Shown in pieces: positions 7,546 to 58,333 of a stretch of DNA of 64,000 nt (position 1 is the first letter of the stretch; each line of letters begins with the position of its first letter). The notes under the pieces are model-generated. The model did no database searches and had not been told where the DNA came from. It saw only the letters and a list, made by a program, of their open reading frames with translations. A program made the translations under genes and the position numbers. Source of the stretch: Aggregatilineales bacterium (lineage in GTDB: Bacteria > Chloroflexota > Anaerolineae > Aggregatilineales > Phototrophicaceae). The stretch spans positions 848,665 to 912,664 of the forward strand of contig OY760398.1 in assembly GCA_963663435.1 (NCBI GenBank). The letters are read 5' to 3'.

Positions 7546-8757
7546 ATGAAAATCCTGCTGCTCACGCCGGATTTGCCCTACCCCAGCGAGTCGGGCGCCG
7601 CCTTGCGCAATATGGGCATCATCCGCGGGCTGCGCGCGGCCGGGCATGAGGTTACGCTGCTCAGTTTTCGCGCCAGCCCGGACGCGCCGTCGTCGAGTCC
7701 GCTGAAGGAACTATGCCACAGGCTTCACACTGCGCCGCTGCCAAACAGAACACGAAGAGATCGCCTGATCACACTCGTGACGAGTTCCCGAGCGGATCTG
7801 GAATCCAGGCTGGCGAGCGATGCCTACGAGCGCGCATTGCGGCAACTGCTGCATTCGGAGTGTTTCGACATTGTGCAATTTTCGGGCATTGAGCTGGGCG
7901 GCTACCTGGAAGTGATTCTAGCGGCGAAGGGCAGCGCCAAGGTGGTTTACGACGCGCTTAACGCCGAAGCCGACTTGCAGCGAGTAATCGCCCGCGTCGA
8001 TGCTGGGCGGGTCAAACGCATGCCGGCTGCGGTCTATTCGGCGGCACAGGCGCGGCGGCTCTCGCGCTTTGAAGAACGCGTCTGCAATGGGGTCGACGCT
8101 GTCATCGCCGTCAGCGGCGAAGACCGGGATTTGCTGGGGCGCTATGGGGGAGCGCCCATCACGGTGATGTCAAATGGCATCGCGGTGGCCGAATATCGTG
8201 CGCCGACGGGCCAATCGCGCTCAATGCGACATATCGTGTTCAGCGGCAAAATGGATTATCGCCCCAATGTTGACGCTGCTGAATGGCTGTTTAAGGCGAT
8301 AATGCCGCGTGTCTGGGAGGGAGAGCCGGCGGCTCGCCTGAGTATCGTGGGGCGGAATCCGCACCCTCGCCTTGGAGTGTTGGCGCAGGACCCGCGCATC
8401 AAGCTGACCGGCTGGGTCGAGTCGGTGCTGCCATATTTGCACGAAGCCGCTCTCTTTGTCGTGCCGCTTCGCATGGGCAGCGGGACGCGGCTGAAGATCT
8501 TGCAGGCGATGGCGGCGGGTTGCGCCGTGCTGTCCACGTCAATCGGCGCGGCCGGCCTTAACAGCGAGGTTCGCGGCGCGCTGGAAATTGCGGACGATGC
8601 CGATGAATTCGCGCGGGCCATCTTGGACTTGCTTCAAGACGATTCGCGGCGCCTTGACCTGGGAGCGCGGGCGATGGAGGCGGTCGGCGAATATTATGAC
8701 TGGCGGGTGCTGATGCCAAATCTGCTGCGCGTGTACGAGAGCCTGGCCAGTGGATAG
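7546..8757 (+). CDS. glycosyltransferase family 4
   Basis: MKILLLTPDLPYPSESGAALR N-terminus. GSGTRLKILQAMAAGCAVLST motif near the C-terminus. Confidence 0.85.
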   Translation: MKILLLTPDLPYPSESGAALRNMGIIRGLRAAGHEVTLLSFRASPDAPSSSPLKELCHRLHTAPLPNRTRRDRLITLVTSSRADLESRLASDAYERALRQLLHSECFDIVQFSGIELGGYLEVILAAKGSAKVVYDALNAEADLQRVIARVDAGRVKRMPAAVYSAAQARRLSRFEERVCNGVDAVIAVSGEDRDLLGRYGGAPITVMSNGIAVAEYRAPTGQSRSMRHIVFSGKMDYRPNVDAAEWLFKAIMPRVWEGEPAARLSIVGRNPHPRLGVLAQDPRIKLTGWVESVLPYLHEAALFVVPLRMGSGTRLKILQAMAAGCAVLSTSIGAAGLNSEVRGALEIADDADEFARAILDLLQDDSRRLDLGARAMEAVGEYYDWRVLMPNLLRVYESLASG

Positions 8758-53678: not shown

Positions 53679-53750
<72 letters not shown>

Positions 53751-53754
53751 TTGA

Positions 53755-53828
53755 GCTGATGTAGCTCAGCTGGTTAGAGCGCGCGACTCATAATCGCGAG
53801 GTCGGAAGTTCAAATCTTCCCATCAGCA
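53755..53828 (+). tRNA. tRNA with CAU anticodon (elongator Met or lysidine-dependent Ile2)
   Basis: Clean cloverleaf: acceptor GCTGATG/CATCAGC, D stem GCTC/GAGC, anticodon stem CGCGA/TCGCG with loop CTCATAA, T arm GGAAG-TTCAAAT-CTTCC. No encoded CCA. Confidence 0.85.
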
Positions 53829-53837
53829 CTGAATGGG

Positions 53838-53859
53838 AGACCCGCAACGGGTCTTTTTT
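53838..53859 (+). terminator. rho-independent terminator after the tRNA pair
   Basis: AGACCCG-CAA-CGGGTCT followed by TTTTT. Confidence 0.7.
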
Positions 53860-53883
53860 GGTTGGTATGGTATTGAGTTGAAT

Positions 53884-53911
53884 ATTCAAAACAGATGTGC
53901 TAGGCTATAGT
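53884..53911 (+). promoter_or_regulatory. possible promoter of the islet operon overlapping a 12-bp palindrome
   Basis: -10 TATAGT (53906-53911). Weak -35 candidates ATTCAA/TTCAAA 15-16 nt upstream lie inside the palindrome TTGAATATTCAA (53878-53889). Confidence 0.3.
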
Positions 53912-53952
53912 TAATGTCCTGCGGTCGCCAGGTCATGTGGGGAGGGGACAAC

Positions 53953-54378
53953 ATGAAGCGGACCGATTTGCTTTTGAAGATCATCGTTGCTGCCAACGGG
54001 GAGCCAGTTACTCCAGCTCAACTGCAAAAGGTGGCATTCCGTTTGGGAATTGAATGTAGCAAGTACATGCCTGATGACTACTATCAATTTCGGAAGTATG
54101 ACTACGGTCCCTTTTCCGCGGATATATACCGCGACGCAGAAGAACTTGAGCGCGAAGGCAAAATCAGAATTTCCATTAATCCAAGAGGCGGCTGGAGAGA
54201 ATACGCGTCGACAGTCCGCGGCTACATGACAGCGATTGAGGATATGCCCGAAGAAGTGTCGACGTTCATCGCGGACAAAGTTTGTTGGGCACGGGGTCTA
54301 TCGTTTCAGCAACTGGTTCGCGAAGTTTACCAGATGTACCCAGCTTACCGTGAAAACAGCGTGTTTCAGGATTGGTAG
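53953..54378 (+). CDS. small winged-helix protein resembling the SocA/Panacea (DUF4065)-YwgA type
   Basis: ATG 53953 with GGAGGGG SD. 141 aa. Pattern LQKVAF..(25 aa)..FRKYDYGPFSADIYRDAEELEREGKI recalled from Panacea/YwgA-like proteins. AT-richer than flanking genes. Confidence 0.55.
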   Translation: MKRTDLLLKIIVAANGEPVTPAQLQKVAFRLGIECSKYMPDDYYQFRKYDYGPFSADIYRDAEELEREGKIRISINPRGGWREYASTVRGYMTAIEDMPEEVSTFIADKVCWARGLSFQQLVREVYQMYPAYRENSVFQDW

Positions 54379-54382
54379 CGCA

Positions 54383-55099
54383 GTGACACTTATTGTTGGG
54401 GTGATATGTAGCGACGGCGTGGTTATTGGCGCGGACAGCGTTGCAACTGCCGAAACCGCAATAGAATACCATGTTAGCGACAAGTTCACTATTGAAGAAG
54501 AGGATGTCATCATCGCCTGTTCTGGCTCAGCCGGCTTGAGCCAAATGATCAAGGAAGACCTTAGTGGAAGATGGCATGAGTTTAAACAGTACCGCAGTTT
54601 GAGAGATGTCCGGTCTGCCATATCCGACGCCATGTATTCGCAGATAGAGCCAAGCGCTAAGCGTGCCAAGAGCGCGGGCAAGGCGTTTGGCGGATGTGAT
54701 GTCTTGGTGGCCATGCCCGTTAACTATGCGCCAAACTTGTTTCACTTTAACGCTCTGGCAGATTCTTTCCAGATAACTCCAGAATCTCCATTTGTATCAA
54801 TTGGAAGCGGTCGAAGACAAGCTGACCCGTTTCTAGCATTCATTAGGCGAATCGTTTGGAGAGACATAGCGCCGACGTCCACGCGGCTGGCCATTTTTGG
54901 CGTATTGTGGACTCTCCAACATGTCAGTACGGTGAACGCCGGATTAGGCGTCGGCGAACCTCACCGTATTGCAGTCTTGGAAAAACATAGCGGGCTTTGG
55001 AGTGCCAAACCATTAAGCGAAGGCGAACTCTTGGAACATAAGCAAGCCATAGTCGAAGCCGAAGACGCCCTACGGCGTTTTGGTGAAGGTTCGATCTGA
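54383..55099 (+). CDS. proteasome beta-subunit/HslV-like N-terminal nucleophile (T1 family) threonine peptidase, no propeptide
   Basis: GTG 54383, 4 nt after the upstream stop. (M)TLIVGVICSDGVVIGADS. Counted from Thr: D17, K33 (SDKFTI), G47 (CSGSAG), GSG at 140-142. The ORF-track ATG 54236 would overlap the upstream gene by 143 nt with a junk-like 49-aa extension. Confidence 0.7.
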   Translation: MTLIVGVICSDGVVIGADSVATAETAIEYHVSDKFTIEEEDVIIACSGSAGLSQMIKEDLSGRWHEFKQYRSLRDVRSAISDAMYSQIEPSAKRAKSAGKAFGGCDVLVAMPVNYAPNLFHFNALADSFQITPESPFVSIGSGRRQADPFLAFIRRIVWRDIAPTSTRLAIFGVLWTLQHVSTVNAGLGVGEPHRIAVLEKHSGLWSAKPLSEGELLEHKQAIVEAEDALRRFGEGSI

Positions 55100-55106
55100 G
55101 TTTCAC

Positions 55107-56363
55107 CTAGGTGCAATTGACGGATGATTCTCCCACTAGCATATCCTCAAATGTCTCCCGCCGCCGGCTGACCCGCCAGGTATCGCCCGACTCTGACACC
55201 ACCACTTCCGCTGGCCGCGGACGCGCATTATAGTTGCTCGCCATCGACATGCCGTAGGCGCCGGCCGTCATCAGCGCCACACGGTCGCCCGCTTGCAGCG
55301 CGGGCAGCTCGCGATCGCGCGCCAAGACATCTGCCGACTCGCATACCGGTCCCACAACCTGCGCCATCACTGTCTCGCCGTCGCTCGTTCGCAGCGGCGC
55401 AACTTCATGATGGGCGTCGTAAAGCGCTGGCCGAATCAGCTCGGCCATGCTGGCATCAATGATGTAGAAGATTTGCCCCGCCTGCCGTTTGACGTACACG
55501 ACCTCGGCGACCAGCAAGCCAGCGTCAGCCACGATCGAGCGGCCGGGTTCGAGCAGGACGTCATATCCATCCAGCCGCGGCAGCAGCTCGTTCACCAAAG
55601 CCTTGAGCGGCGGCTGCGCATCGTCAGCGCGATAGGCAACTGGCAAACCGCCGCCCAGATTGATTGTGCGGATGCGCGGATGCGCCGCCAGCAGGTCCAG
55701 CGCCGCGTCCAGAGCCGCCAAGGTGGCCGCGGTATCGCCGAGTTGACTGCCGATATGAATATGGATGCCGGCAAAGCTGAGTCGCGGATAGTCGCTCTGC
55801 CGCGTCAAAATGTCGCGAATGACATCGGCGGTTAAGCCGAATTTCGCGGCGCCGTGGCCTGTCGCCATATACGGGTGAGTATTGGCAGTGACCTGAGGAT
55901 TCAGCCGCAGCGCCACGTTCACAGCGTCTACGCCCAGGTCGTCAGCGCTTGAGTTGATGTAGCGCAGCTCGGCGAGGTTTTCGACATTGAACCAGCCGAT
56001 GCCCCGCGATACGGCGAAGGCAATCTCGGCGCGGGTTTTGCCGACGCCCGCGAATACGATGAACTGTGCGGGAACGCCGGCTCGCAGGCAGCGATCGATT
56101 TCGCCGGCGCTCACACAATCGAAGCCCGCGCCTGCGCCCGCCAGCGAACGAAGAATCGACAGGCTGCCGTTGGCCTTGACGCTGTAGTGAATCCGGGCAT
56201 TGCAGGGAGCGAATGCCGCGCGCAAGCGGCGATAATTCTCGCCAACGCGCTTGCGGCTGTAGATATACGTGGGCGTGCCGACCTGACAGGCTATCGACTC
56301 GACGGTGATGTCGTCGATGTAGAGCGAATCGTCGATATAGCGGATAGAGGCGTTGAAGACCAT
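55107..56363 (-). CDS. lysA: diaminopimelate decarboxylase
   Basis: YSVKANGSLSIL (PLP lysine), HIHIGSQL, GGGLPVAY, CESADVL. Confidence 0.95.
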   Translation of the reverse strand: MVFNASIRYIDDSLYIDDITVESIACQVGTPTYIYSRKRVGENYRRLRAAFAPCNARIHYSVKANGSLSILRSLAGAGAGFDCVSAGEIDRCLRAGVPAQFIVFAGVGKTRAEIAFAVSRGIGWFNVENLAELRYINSSADDLGVDAVNVALRLNPQVTANTHPYMATGHGAAKFGLTADVIRDILTRQSDYPRLSFAGIHIHIGSQLGDTAATLAALDAALDLLAAHPRIRTINLGGGLPVAYRADDAQPPLKALVNELLPRLDGYDVLLEPGRSIVADAGLLVAEVVYVKRQAGQIFYIIDASMAELIRPALYDAHHEVAPLRTSDGETVMAQVVGPVCESADVLARDRELPALQAGDRVALMTAGAYGMSMASNYNARPRPAEVVVSESGDTWRVSRRRETFEDMLVGESSVNCT

Positions 56364-56381
56364 GATCCAGCGCAGTTAGCC

Positions 56382-56415
56382 AAAAAAAACGGAGACACCG
56401 GCTAAAGTGTCTCCG
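56382..56415 (-). terminator. rho-independent terminator after tRNA-Asp
   Basis: Minus strand CGGAGACAC-TTTAGCCG-GTGTCTCCG followed by an 8-nt U-run. Confidence 0.7.
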
Positions 56416-56420
56416 ACTGA

Positions 56421-56493
56421 CGGGAGCGACGGGATTTGAACCCGCGATCTCCGGCTTGACAGGCCGGCATGTTAACCGCTACACCACGCCCCC
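56421..56493 (-). tRNA. tRNA-Asp (anticodon GUC)
   Basis: 73-nt cloverleaf: acceptor GGGGGCG/CGCTCCC (one G:U), anticodon stem CCGGC/GCCGG with loop CTGTCAA, T loop TTCAAAT. No encoded CCA. Confidence 0.9.
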
Positions 56494-56594
56494 AGATAAC
56501 TGTATTAGCTTAGCACTTCGGTTTGCTTGTGTCAAGTCTGTCTCCCTGCGCGCTGCTGATGCCGGCTGACTGACCCGAGTTTAAGACAGCCGGC

Positions 56595-57449
56595 CTAGAT
56601 CTGTCCGAAGCCGCCGATCGCGCTCGACTTGCCCGACAGATAACGCGCCGTCAGTATCAGAATCAGGATCGACGGCGCGACGAAAACCAGGGACATGGCC
56701 GCGGTAAGCGCGTTGTTGGTGCCGGACGCGATAGAGAATAGCAGCACCGGCATAGTAATCACTTGCCCCGCGCCCACCAGGAAAGTCAAGATGTACTGGC
56801 TCCAGGAGATCAAATAGGCGAACAGGCTGGCCACCACGATGCCGGGGAATACCGCCGGCAAGGTAACATGCCAGAATGTACGCAGCGTTCCCGCGCCCAA
56901 CGACCGCGCCTGCTGCTCAAACTCGGGATTGTAGTTGGCGAAGACGCCGGAAAGCGTCAAAACGACGTAAGGCATTACCGGCACCAGGTGCACCAGTCCG
57001 ACGCCAAGTAGATTGCCCGACAGTCCCCAGCGGATGAAGTTGATGTTCAAGCCCATGGCCACGGCGATGCCGGGCACAATCGTCGGCGAGATTATCAGAA
57101 ACTCGATGACGCGTTTGCCGCGAAAGGAGTATAAGCCCAAGGCCCGCGCCGCCGGCAGGCCGATGATCACCGAGCTCATGGTGACGCCCACGGCCAGGAT
57201 GGTGCTATTCAGCAAAGCTTCGGGCACTTTGGAGTTGGCGGAGAAGGTGCTTTCCCAGGCGCGCAGGCTCAATTCGTCCGGGAAGAGCTGCGGATAAAAC
57301 CAGCGGAATGAAAATGCATTAAACAGGAAGGCAAGCAAGGGCGTCAGGAGCAAAAAAATCAGCAAGATGACGGCGCAGTAGTGCAGCGCGCGCAAGAGCC
57401 GCTTTCTCGCCAGACCGGTCTGCGAAAGGTCAACACTCAAGGCAGCCAT
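56595..57449 (-). CDS. ABC transporter permease (PotC/CysW-type binding-protein-dependent inner membrane component)
   Basis: EAA-type loop (EQQARSLGAGTLRTFWHVTLP). Six TM helices. ATG 57449 lies 5 nt after the upstream stop; alternative GTG 57488. Confidence 0.8.
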   Translation of the reverse strand: MAALSVDLSQTGLARKRLLRALHYCAVILLIFLLLTPLLAFLFNAFSFRWFYPQLFPDELSLRAWESTFSANSKVPEALLNSTILAVGVTMSSVIIGLPAARALGLYSFRGKRVIEFLIISPTIVPGIAVAMGLNINFIRWGLSGNLLGVGLVHLVPVMPYVVLTLSGVFANYNPEFEQQARSLGAGTLRTFWHVTLPAVFPGIVVASLFAYLISWSQYILTFLVGAGQVITMPVLLFSIASGTNNALTAAMSLVFVAPSILILILTARYLSGKSSAIGGFGQI

Positions 57450-57454
57450 AGCGA

Positions 57455-58333
57455 TTAGTCCTGCCGTATCGCGCGGCGGCTGAGCCACATATATCCCAGC
57501 ACCAGGAAGAATACGATAATTGAAATGATGATGCTGATGGCCATGCCCTCGGTTCGGGCGTTGAGATCCGGATTACGGAAGAAACGCACGGCCGTCACGG
57601 TCAGGGTGCGGGGAAAGCGCACGCCCAGAATCGCCGGCACTTCGTAGGAGCCGAAGGTGAACGCGAAAACCAGGATCGAACCGGAAAGCACGCCAGGCAT
57701 CACCAGCGGAAGAATCACGTAGCGGAAGCGCTGCCAGCGATTGGCGCCCAAGCTGCGGGCCAGATCTTCGTAGTCCACGCCCAGCGATTGCAGCACGGCC
57801 AGCACGATAACGCCGATGAAGGGCACTTCTTTCCAGACGAAGGACAGCATCATGCCGATGCCATATCGGTCGCGCACCAGCACCGGAAACTCATTCGGAT
57901 AGCTGATCAGGCCCAGCTGCGCTCCCGTACGCGACAACACGCCGCTCTGCGAGAAAAGGAAGAGAATGCCGATCGCCGCGACCACATGCGGCACGGGCAG
58001 GTTAAATTGGTAGAGGAAGACAGCGACGCGTTTGCCGACAAAAGTGCGGCGCAGCAGCAGCGCGGTCATCAGCGCCAAAATCGCCGAAATCACCGTGCTG
58101 CCCACGCTGACCCAGATTGTCAGTACCAAGCCATGCCAGAAGACTTCCGTGAACTCGCCGGAAAACAGGATGTTCTGATAAGCACGCAGCGAGATCTCGG
58201 TCCGGCCGATCAGCGGCTGCCAGCCCAGGCTGACCATGGTCCCGTATATCAAGCCGCCGATGAACAAGAAGAAAATGACCGACATCGTCGGCGCCAACAT
58301 AATCGGGATGCGCCAGCGATCCCAAAACGTCAA
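57455..58333 (-). CDS. ABC transporter permease (PotB-type)
   Basis: EAA loop (EDLARSLGANRWQRFRYVILP). TTG 58333 sits 5 nt after a GGAGGA SD. The ORF-track GTG 58372 is possible but lacks an SD. Confidence 0.8.
   Translation of the reverse strand: MTFWDRWRIPIMLAPTMSVIFFLFIGGLIYGTMVSLGWQPLIGRTEISLRAYQNILFSGEFTEVFWHGLVLTIWVSVGSTVISAILALMTALLLRRTFVGKRVAVFLYQFNLPVPHVVAAIGILFLFSQSGVLSRTGAQLGLISYPNEFPVLVRDRYGIGMMLSFVWKEVPFIGVIVLAVLQSLGVDYEDLARSLGANRWQRFRYVILPLVMPGVLSGSILVFAFTFGSYEVPAILGVRFPRTLTVTAVRFFRNPDLNARTEGMAISIIISIIVFFLVLGYMWLSRRAIRQD

Follow-up and report, generated by a model that had tools for sequence, protein, structure and literature searches.

A predicted winged-helix protein and a proteasome-family peptidase form a strictly paired, horizontally exchanged cassette at a tRNA-Met/lysA site

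Two genes between tRNA-Met and lysA

In an Aggregatilineales bacterium of the Chloroflexota, a low-G+C islet of two genes lies between a pair of tRNA-Met genes and lysA, the gene for diaminopimelate decarboxylase. We analyzed it within a stretch of 64,000 nucleotides (nt) of contig OY760398.1, called the window throughout. Both genes are on the forward strand. Gene 1 runs from an ATG at 53953 to a TAG at 54378, is preceded by a GGGAGGGG ribosome-binding site and codes for a predicted winged-helix protein of 141 amino acids (aa). Gene 2, which starts with a GTG at 54383, 4 nt past the gene-1 stop, and ends with a TGA at 55099, codes for a proteasome-family peptidase of 238 aa. Independent gene calls on the identical public contig likewise give products of 141 and 238 aa. 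The pair is one obligate two-gene module across more than 12 phyla, and the cassette it forms is accessory and horizontally exchanged.

The left flank consists of the two tRNA-Met genes (53679-53750 and 53755-53829, forward strand; ARAGORN), separated by 4 nt, and of their terminator, a 10-bp G+C-rich hairpin with a T-run (53835-53860, forward strand; folding energy -12.6 kcal/mol, z = -2.0) that is conserved in relatives. The right flank is lysA (55107-56363, reverse strand; assigned by its Pfam families and by synteny), whose convergent stop codon (55107-55109) is found 7 nt from that of gene 2. The tRNA genes and lysA lie outside the cassette. An earlier sequence-only reading of this DNA had described the islet coordinates, the gene spacing and the convergent lysA in the same way, and gene calls, ARAGORN and folding bear it out. 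Within the tRNA-Met pair, the block 53701-53800 is 100% identical in 4 of 4 aligned relatives, the protein-coding flanks there being 75-98% identical.

A simple consensus scan for promoters and terminators called nothing in the islet; the terminator was confirmed by folding instead. A putative promoter of the pair may lie at 53878-53911 (forward strand), with the candidate -10 elements TGcTAGGCT and TATAGT. Its likely -35 region is overlapped by a 12-bp perfect palindrome, TTGAATATTCAA (53878-53889), which occurs in a single copy in the window, 0 being expected by chance, and of which one half only is conserved in relatives.

The islet also departs from the window in composition, as had been suggested. 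G+C over 53750-55100 is 0.49-0.52, against 0.60-0.65 in the flanks, and G+C at third codon positions (GC3) is 0.55 in gene 1 and 0.51 in gene 2, against 0.73-0.78 in six flanking genes. The rest of the window is core housekeeping DNA, with aspS, ligA, PolX, a trpE-like gene, an AroK-AroB fusion, uvrB and lysA. Several absences reported earlier were followed up. A second ring subunit is indeed missing, the hidden Markov model (HMM) of the peptidase family matching a single open reading frame (ORF) of the window, gene 2 itself. An AAA+ unfoldase is likewise absent among the four scanned Walker A ORFs of the window (ABC transporter, AroK-AroB fusion, LigA and UvrB); a fifth, an ABC-type permease with the motif near its C-terminal end, was outside the scan. 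The claim that an integrase is lacking stands for the conserved synteny block around the islet, where none was found, the window ORFs not having all been scanned for one.

Pairing, gain and loss of the cassette

Scanning one genome per species with the peptidase alignment yielded 80 loci. They are distributed over Chloroflexota (Anaerolineae-type and Dehalococcoidia), Acidobacteriota, five lineages of the candidate phyla radiation (CPR), Armatimonadota, Planctomycetota (among them Fontivita pretiosa B-254, the only carrier in culture, with its pair at about 1,081,300-1,082,500 of NZ_CP191258), Gemmatimonadota, Latescibacterota, KSB1, Omnitrophota, Bacteroidota and Proteobacteria. Each of the 80 has a gene-1 homologue immediately upstream in the same orientation, the aligned cores being 3-33 nt apart. 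The same arrangement is seen in the 4 of 4 peptidase-carrying IMG/VR contigs, so that gene 1 is present at 84 of 84 peptidase-seeded loci. The reciprocal test started from 80 metagenome loci seeded on gene 1, and in 77 of the 79 with room downstream the peptidase follows directly. Gene 1 is thus a conserved partner, with pairing in 161 of 163 loci overall. The gap between the two genes is 3-4 nt, and they are probably translationally coupled. All-versus-all clustering of 1,241 neighbouring ORFs from the 80 loci revealed no third conserved gene outside the syntenic clade except an IS1595 transposase, and no Anbu-type neighbours, in line with what had been seen in the window.

Two metagenome contigs carry gene 1 without the peptidase. 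In L128:167-1171 it has a C-terminal extension of ~70 aa and is followed by a 98-aa ORF; in L140:215-1268 two ORFs of 60 and 99 aa come after it, the longer one with a hydrophobic N-terminus. A Pfam scan of these downstream ORFs returned no matches. By analogy with Panacea antitoxins, the two contigs could be cases of partner swapping. Two genomes, in addition, hold a second, divergent pair at another site.

The same intergenic spot, from the tRNA terminator to the lysA stop, is occupied by the pair in about 32 Anaerolineae-type genomes (Phototrophicaceae, Aggregatilineales), within a conserved block in the order HDAC-like gene, uvrB, two tRNA-Met genes, pair, lysA and tRNA-Asp. The pair is therefore no recent private acquisition of the window genome. 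To look at unoccupied sites we used eight LysA homologues (69-83% identical) on contigs outside the earlier match lists, a sample that is biased towards empties and gives no frequency. Six of the eight sites are empty: uvrB, the tRNAs and lysA follow in the same order, without a trace of gene 1 or gene 2. The tRNA-Met genes are found at occupied and empty sites alike. In one empty site (L178) the T-run of the terminator is followed by ~12 nt and then by the lysA stop, and because terminator and lysA stop are joined in this way, the boundaries of the islet are exactly those of the insertion.

Occupied sites differ in the allele they hold. In their identities to the window the flanking genes are mutually congruent (Spearman 0.74-0.91), whereas the identities of gene 1 and gene 2 are uncorrelated with those of the flanking genes (rho -0.33 to +0.13). 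The closest genome, L015, has a uvrB that is 98% and a lysA that is 89% identical, but a gene 1 of 58% and a peptidase of 42%; in the more distant L001, lysA is 80% identical and gene 1 and gene 2 are both at ~80%. At the DNA level, identity to L015 is 93-100% in 53701-54000, falls to 38-64% over 54005-55157 and recovers to 90-95% past that point, the blocks of 55201-56500 being 81-96% identical. The stretch swapped for a divergent allele in the closest relatives (54005-55157, forward strand) accordingly breaks near codon 18 of gene 1 (~54005) and in about the last 16 codons of lysA (~55157). These sharp breakpoints, together with an L001 cassette that has diverged only as lysA has, argue for allele replacement by recombination in the conserved ends. 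Fast evolution of the cassette was considered as an explanation and rejected, since the L001 cassette diverged like lysA (~80%) while closer genomes show 42-58% with sharp breakpoints.

The site is a fixed, integrase-free intergenic hotspot where the cassette is gained, lost or replaced. The horizontal acquisition proposed by the sequence-only reading agrees with the empty sites, the allele swaps, the low G+C and the links to insertion sequences (IS) and integrases, while obligate pairing and the empty and swapped sites speak against the opposite case, in which the two genes would not be co-conserved and would be vertically inherited here. The G+C content of the pair is ~0.45-0.52 irrespective of the host. 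In 75 of 81 loci this is lower than in the flanks, whereas for most CPR hosts of low G+C the pair equals or exceeds its flanks. Only part of the picture of a tRNA-adjacent acquired cargo holds: the cassette is mobile and adjoins tRNAs here, but this adjacency is lineage-specific, a tRNA lying within 500 nt of the pair in only 2 of 48 loci outside the syntenic clade. Integration targeted to the tRNA was rejected, given the lack of an integrase in the synteny block, the rarity of tRNA adjacency outside the clade and empty sites without repeats or remnants.

Elsewhere, the neighbours of the pair include mobile elements. An IS1595 transposase lies convergently just after the peptidase in five loci of Acidobacteriota and Gemmatimonadota (IS1595/ISXO2-type neighbours at L051, L052, L058, L061 and L077). 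In the Acidobacteriota metagenome-assembled genome (MAG) CBDBID01, a 2.4-kb unit made up of the pair and the transposase is found twice in different contexts, with 99.87% identity (L051:7451-9835 and L052:7451-9835), and looks as if the pair were IS cargo. The Latescibacterota MAG CBDCJO01 has a ~7-kb repeat with the pair in three copies, 99.86% identical and two of them at contig ends (L071:4464-12195, L070:4464-11765 and L073:1-6754); the repeat further includes a gene for an outer-membrane beta-barrel, one resembling those for nucleoside 2-deoxyribosyltransferases and part of a DDE_3 transposase, and one of its edges has a Mutator-family transposase. Four IMG/VR contigs classed as viral (L082-L085) each hold a complete pair. 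An IS1-type transposase adjoins one of them, and a Pfam scan of the neighbours on these contigs gave nothing informative beyond it.

The expectation that such pairs would be located in defence islands or near tRNAs holds in part. One homologue shares its island with two Phd-type antitoxins, an integrase and an excisionase-like helix-turn-helix protein. Restriction-modification or DISARM-like genes adjoin the pair elsewhere, and other homologues have a methylase-Mrr fusion next to them, or a PLD-helicase with an Eco57I/MmeI-type methylase. The commonest Pfam families among 136 near neighbours are DDE transposases, phage integrases, DNA methylases, GmrSD and ResIII. Set against these restriction-modification and Phd neighbours are the scarcity of tRNAs and many housekeeping contexts.

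Variation was also noticed in the surrounding DNA. The segment 51250-51475, a second small variable spot that extends from the HDAC-like gene to the uvrB stop, 2.5 kb from the islet, is without an aligned counterpart in L015, L012, L001 and L010 (0-40% identity in 100-nt bins), and both genes flanking it are 85-99% identical. Downstream of tRNA-Asp, the ABC-permease genes at 56501-57500 are 84-94% identical to L012 and L010 and only 20-43% to L015, which appears to have been rearranged or replaced at this position.

The peptidase, its partner and how they might work together

Gene 2 passes the threshold of the Pfam family Proteasome (PF00227; E = 1.5e-9, 38.3 bits against a curated cut-off of 22.4), and most of its homologues carry this domain. 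The 33 homologues aligned (35-98% identity) hardly vary at Thr1 of the mature protein and are constant at Asp17, Lys33 and Gly47 (T2, D18, K34 and G48 of the precursor); a GSG and an ADPFLAF motif are invariant too. Nearly all of the aligned proteins, gene 2 included, begin with M-T-L-I. The AlphaFold2 (AF2) model has a predicted local distance difference test (pLDDT) score of 90.7 and finds 1222 matches in the PDB at E <= 1e-3; among the matches listed, all are Anbu or 20S subunits. Anbu comes first (E ~1e-12, template modelling (TM) score 0.72), with a match that spans the whole protein and its long C-terminal helix; 20S beta subunits come next. The earlier assignment to the T1 family is thus supported by family threshold, catalytic residues and predicted fold, and the case in which the protein would lack the alpha-beta-beta-alpha fold of N-terminal nucleophile (Ntn) hydrolases is countered by the model. 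Judged by sequence and model, gene 2 is a stand-alone proteasome-family (T1) Ntn peptidase with a full catalytic set and predicted activity.

Within this superfamily, gene 2 has, by its model, the Anbu fold yet stands outside the Anbu family: structural alignments give 16-19% identity, and phmmer E-values are 0.056 and 0.76. An HslV model is absent from its NCBIfam matches, the only sign of that family being a weak match to phrog_1040 (1.5e-4). A profile search of 1.84 billion representatives returned 523 clusters of the gene-2 family at E <= 1e-30. Among the top 150, almost every alignment begins at residue 1; these proteins measure 190-333 aa and are without propeptides or domain fusions. 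Because gene 2 is made without a propeptide, its predicted nucleophile would be exposed once the initiator Met is removed.

In four short-read assemblies gene 2 is interrupted, by an in-frame stop in two and by a frameshift in the other two (L009:8466-8468, L035:7919-7921, L044 ~8171-8177 and L078 ~8273-8345), and gene 1 is intact in all four. A truncation of gene 1 in L006 was only apparent and corresponds to a scaffold gap of 10 Ns.

The LQK...YGP-type motifs that had been quoted for gene 1 are present, and a distant kinship with Panacea and YwgA, along the lines proposed, is suggested by PADLOC, by Pfam annotation of relatives and by fold matches of the AF2 model. In PADLOC, gene 1 matches PDC-M19A with 3.5e-11, over only positions 3-125 of a 294-position profile, the C-terminal end of a Type I specificity-subunit model with 2.6e-6 and DarG with 0.008. 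The PDC-M19 system as such is not recovered, the PDC-M19A match being partial and the peptidase having no match; the literature on PDC-M19 and YwgA held nothing usable. Pfam SocA_Panacea (PF13274, DUF4065) is matched by 6 of 45 members of the gene-1 family (best 3.6e-5); the relative P0226 has a precomputed PF13274 match, and some relatives are labelled YwgA by JGI.

The AF2 model of gene 1 (pLDDT 93) shows a winged helix with extra C-terminal helices and a low-confidence, presumably flexible C-terminal motif. Its top fold match in the PDB is 7yk3_D (E = 9e-3, TM 0.47), a chain of a DarTG complex that we take to be the C-terminal part of DarG; MarR/PadR-type winged-helix proteins follow with modest scores (E ~1e-2). 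Within BFVD, a library of viral proteins, unnamed Sulfolobus virus proteins score best (TM up to 0.76), and one phage protein named Panacea-domain is matched with E = 9e-3 and TM 0.48-0.52. In a sequence search of the PDB with gene 1, low E-values were confined to polyubiquitin; these matches were discarded as an artefact, being sums of many 2.7-bit repeats. Sequence and model together suggest that gene 1 codes for an acidic winged-helix protein distantly related to Panacea, YwgA and the C-terminal part of DarG.

A winged helix encoded first in an operon invites the explanation that gene 1 is a plain repressor of its own operon with no contact to the peptidase. The MarR/PadR-type fold matches and the perfect palindrome in the likely promoter point in this direction, and antitoxins and small operon regulators often come first in their operons. 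The predicted recognition helix, however, is acidic in 76 of 76 family members, with a median net charge of -3 and never a positive one, and the median isoelectric point of the family is 5.9. The palindrome is not conserved as a whole in relatives, and neither a near-invariant tail nor obligate pairing over more than 12 phyla is expected of a local repressor. Moreover, it has been argued that a Panacea domain probably does not act as the transcriptional autoregulator of the operon it belongs to (PMC10440598). We regard a plain repressor as very improbable, the least probable of the explanations weighed here.

The most conserved feature of gene 1 is its C-terminal tail, Y-x3-P-x-[YF]-[RK]-x-N-S-V-F, which stops 1-4 residues short of the C terminus and in which Y126, P130, S136 and F138 are invariant or nearly so among 76 members. 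Because the recognition helix is acidic and this tail is the best conserved part, gene 1 does not look like a DNA binder and is better read as a protein binder. An interface between the two proteins would most obviously involve this tail and the active-site region of gene 2, both of them near-invariant; such a conserved interface would also explain how alleles of gene 1 and gene 2 can re-assort.

We favour, with a confidence that falls a little short of an even chance, a module of the toxin-antitoxin or defence-like sort whose peptidase is restrained by gene 1. As in type II toxin-antitoxin systems, the pair is a compact bicistron with a gap of 3-4 nt, and it is patchy and mobile, with a spread over more than 12 phyla, empty sites and IS and integrase links. 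Somewhat more tentatively still, a mobile conflict module may use the proteasome-family peptidase as its effector, which the Panacea-like partner would restrain or direct by means of its own C-terminal tail. In such a module gene 1 would be the dedicated protein partner of the peptidase and would hold it inactive by binding, in the manner of stand-alone Panacea antitoxins and their toxins; the gene-1 tail may be positioned within the conserved active-site cleft or close to it. A trigger, for example phage infection or loss of the cassette, would free the peptidase, which could then cleave cellular or invader proteins, so that growth stops or the invader fails. At the tRNA-Met terminator/lysA hotspot, recombination in the conserved ends would allow the cassette to be gained, lost or replaced by a divergent allele.

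Several observations weigh against a toxin or defence role. Without an unfoldase, proteasome homologues that form rings usually do no harm to folded proteins, so toxicity cannot be taken for granted. The pair has no match in sequenced phages and plasmids and only 4 among 2.9 million viral contigs, and apart from the mobile and defence families most near neighbours are single housekeeping matches in many ordinary neighbourhoods. Gene 2 has no match in PADLOC, gene 1 of the window has no match in Pfam at E <= 1 and so none above any threshold, and its structural likeness to Panacea and DarG is modest (TM 0.45-0.5, E ~1e-2). At no locus is gene 1 broken beside an intact peptidase, but the asymmetry of 4 against 0 is not significant (p ~0.16). 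Finally, gene-1 and gene-2 alleles re-assort within the clade (rho 0.23), as where a gene 1 of 77% identity accompanies a peptidase of 41%, a pattern more easily reconciled with a generic conserved interface than with a toxin and an antitoxin in tight co-evolution. Segments of gene 1 co-vary weakly with the allele type of the peptidase, residues 71-105 differing most.

A generic docking interface is what would be expected if the module were an ATP-independent regulated protease. Gene 1 would then be an adaptor or activator that docks by its C-terminal tail on a ring or helix of the peptidase and opens or feeds it, and the module would serve an accessory proteostasis or stress function spread by horizontal transfer. 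Docking tails of this kind are familiar, as C-terminal tails of HslU dock on HslV and HbYX motifs on the 20S proteasome. The tail of gene 1 has N-S-V-F-x near the C terminus, the V-F-x that ends the protein in about half of the family resembles a hydrophobic-Tyr-x (HbYX) motif, and a peptidase with neither propeptide nor unfoldase partner would suit this role. Its predicted fold, long C-terminal helix included, is that of Anbu, which forms rings or helices (PMC5666114). A precedent for a Panacea domain as protease adaptor is SocA, which delivers SocB to ClpXP (PMC8832971), and the many loci among housekeeping genes point the same way. On the other hand, presence/absence polymorphism, deep allele replacement at one site and a persistently foreign GC3 would be unusual for a proteostasis factor, as would the links to IS, integrases and toxin-antitoxin islands and the extra divergent copies, and gene 1 has its closest annotated relatives among antitoxin or defence components. 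We consider an adaptor or activator unlikely, albeit the strongest of the competing explanations.

The flexible, near-invariant motif at the end of gene 1 could also mark it as a substrate, which a connectase-like peptidase would recognise and then cleave or ligate. Connectase is a proteasome homologue that acts as a highly specific ligase on one short motif (PMC7980362; PMC8665760) and hence a precedent for motif specificity; strict 1:1 pairing and tight spacing would agree with it. The specificity of connectase comes from a helical insertion between strands 3 and 4 that covers the active site (PMC8665760). The predicted fold of gene 2 lacks this insertion and is best matched by Anbu and 20S beta subunits, the neighbourhood has no conserved acceptor protein, and the mobility and allelic turnover of the cassette would be left unexplained. 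This makes a substrate role for gene 1 improbable. Restraint of the peptidase by gene 1 remains the reading that we prefer.

Relation to known systems

The idea of a conserved C-terminal tail by which a partner docks on a proteasome-like peptidase and controls it is shared with HslUV and the HbYX-dependent proteasome activators. The partner here differs in being a 141-aa winged-helix protein without an ATPase domain, with a tail of NSVF-x and not HbYX. From HslV itself the peptidase is set apart by the lack of an HslU AAA+ partner among the Walker A ORFs scanned and of a sequence match at the level of that family. Similarly, there are ties to DarTG, a chain of which is the top fold match of gene 1 besides the weak DarG match in PADLOC, and to SocAB, in which a Panacea protein works with a protease. 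Macrodomain, DarT and SocB are all missing from the pair, however, and its protease is encoded within the module, unlike the housekeeping ClpXP.

Among stand-alone proteasome homologues, Fuchs, Alva and Lupas described in 2021 22 families of orphans and found no genomic context or co-occurrence for them. Gene 2 shares with these orphans, for example WPH ('widespread proteasome homolog'), the stand-alone state, the conserved catalytic set, the absence of a propeptide, the predicted C-terminal helix and the patchy distribution, and may belong to one of the 22 families, possibly WPH. It differs in having one strictly conserved partner. The pairing of gene 1 with the peptidase was thought to be undescribed, and we did not find it in the literature searched. 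What appears to be new here is the strictly conserved pairing together with the behaviour at the hotspot. We know of no function for Anbu, BPH or the 22 families of 2021.

In this context, an orphan proteasome family gains a first conserved partner and a clear accessory, mobile behaviour, which turns the question of its function into a two-gene experiment. If the conflict reading is true, the peptidase would be the first proteasome-like toxin or defence effector, bringing a new effector chemistry (a threonine Ntn peptidase), and gene 1 would be the first dedicated non-ATPase partner of an orphan bacterial proteasome homologue and a near-monogamous branch of Panacea. If gene 1 is instead an adaptor, it would represent a new kind of ATP-independent regulator of a proteasome-like peptidase. 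The locus, for its part, is a clean case, from uncultured Chloroflexota, of an intergenic hotspot that has no integrase and occurs empty, occupied or with a swapped allele.

Two systems come closest to the module. With PanA-PanT it has in common a small protein with LQK...YGP-type motifs, a winged-helix core and, in some family members, a distant PF13274 match; its gene comes immediately before that of a structurally unrelated enzyme, in a bicistron that is compact, patchy and mobile, and two members of the gene-1 family appear to have other downstream partners. The differences are that the partner here is a proteasome-family peptidase, that gene 1 of the window stays below the Pfam threshold, and that Panacea is promiscuous whereas the gene-1 subfamily is almost monogamous. 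In the text and the searched supplements of the Panacea and NetFlax papers there is no proteasome-like toxin class or partner.

With Anbu, the peptidase shares the predicted fold over its full length, a Thr1 right after the Met and the absence of a propeptide and of an AAA+ partner. Anbu operons contain ATP-grasp, alpha-E and transglutaminase-like genes. None of these is a conserved neighbour at the 80 gene-2 loci, a winged-helix gene taking their place, and in the window the flanks are tRNAs, uvrB and lysA; the low sequence identity and a cassette that is mobile, low in G+C and allele-swapping set gene 2 further apart. By the tests run, the module is a member of neither system: it works most like PanA-PanT and looks most like Anbu.

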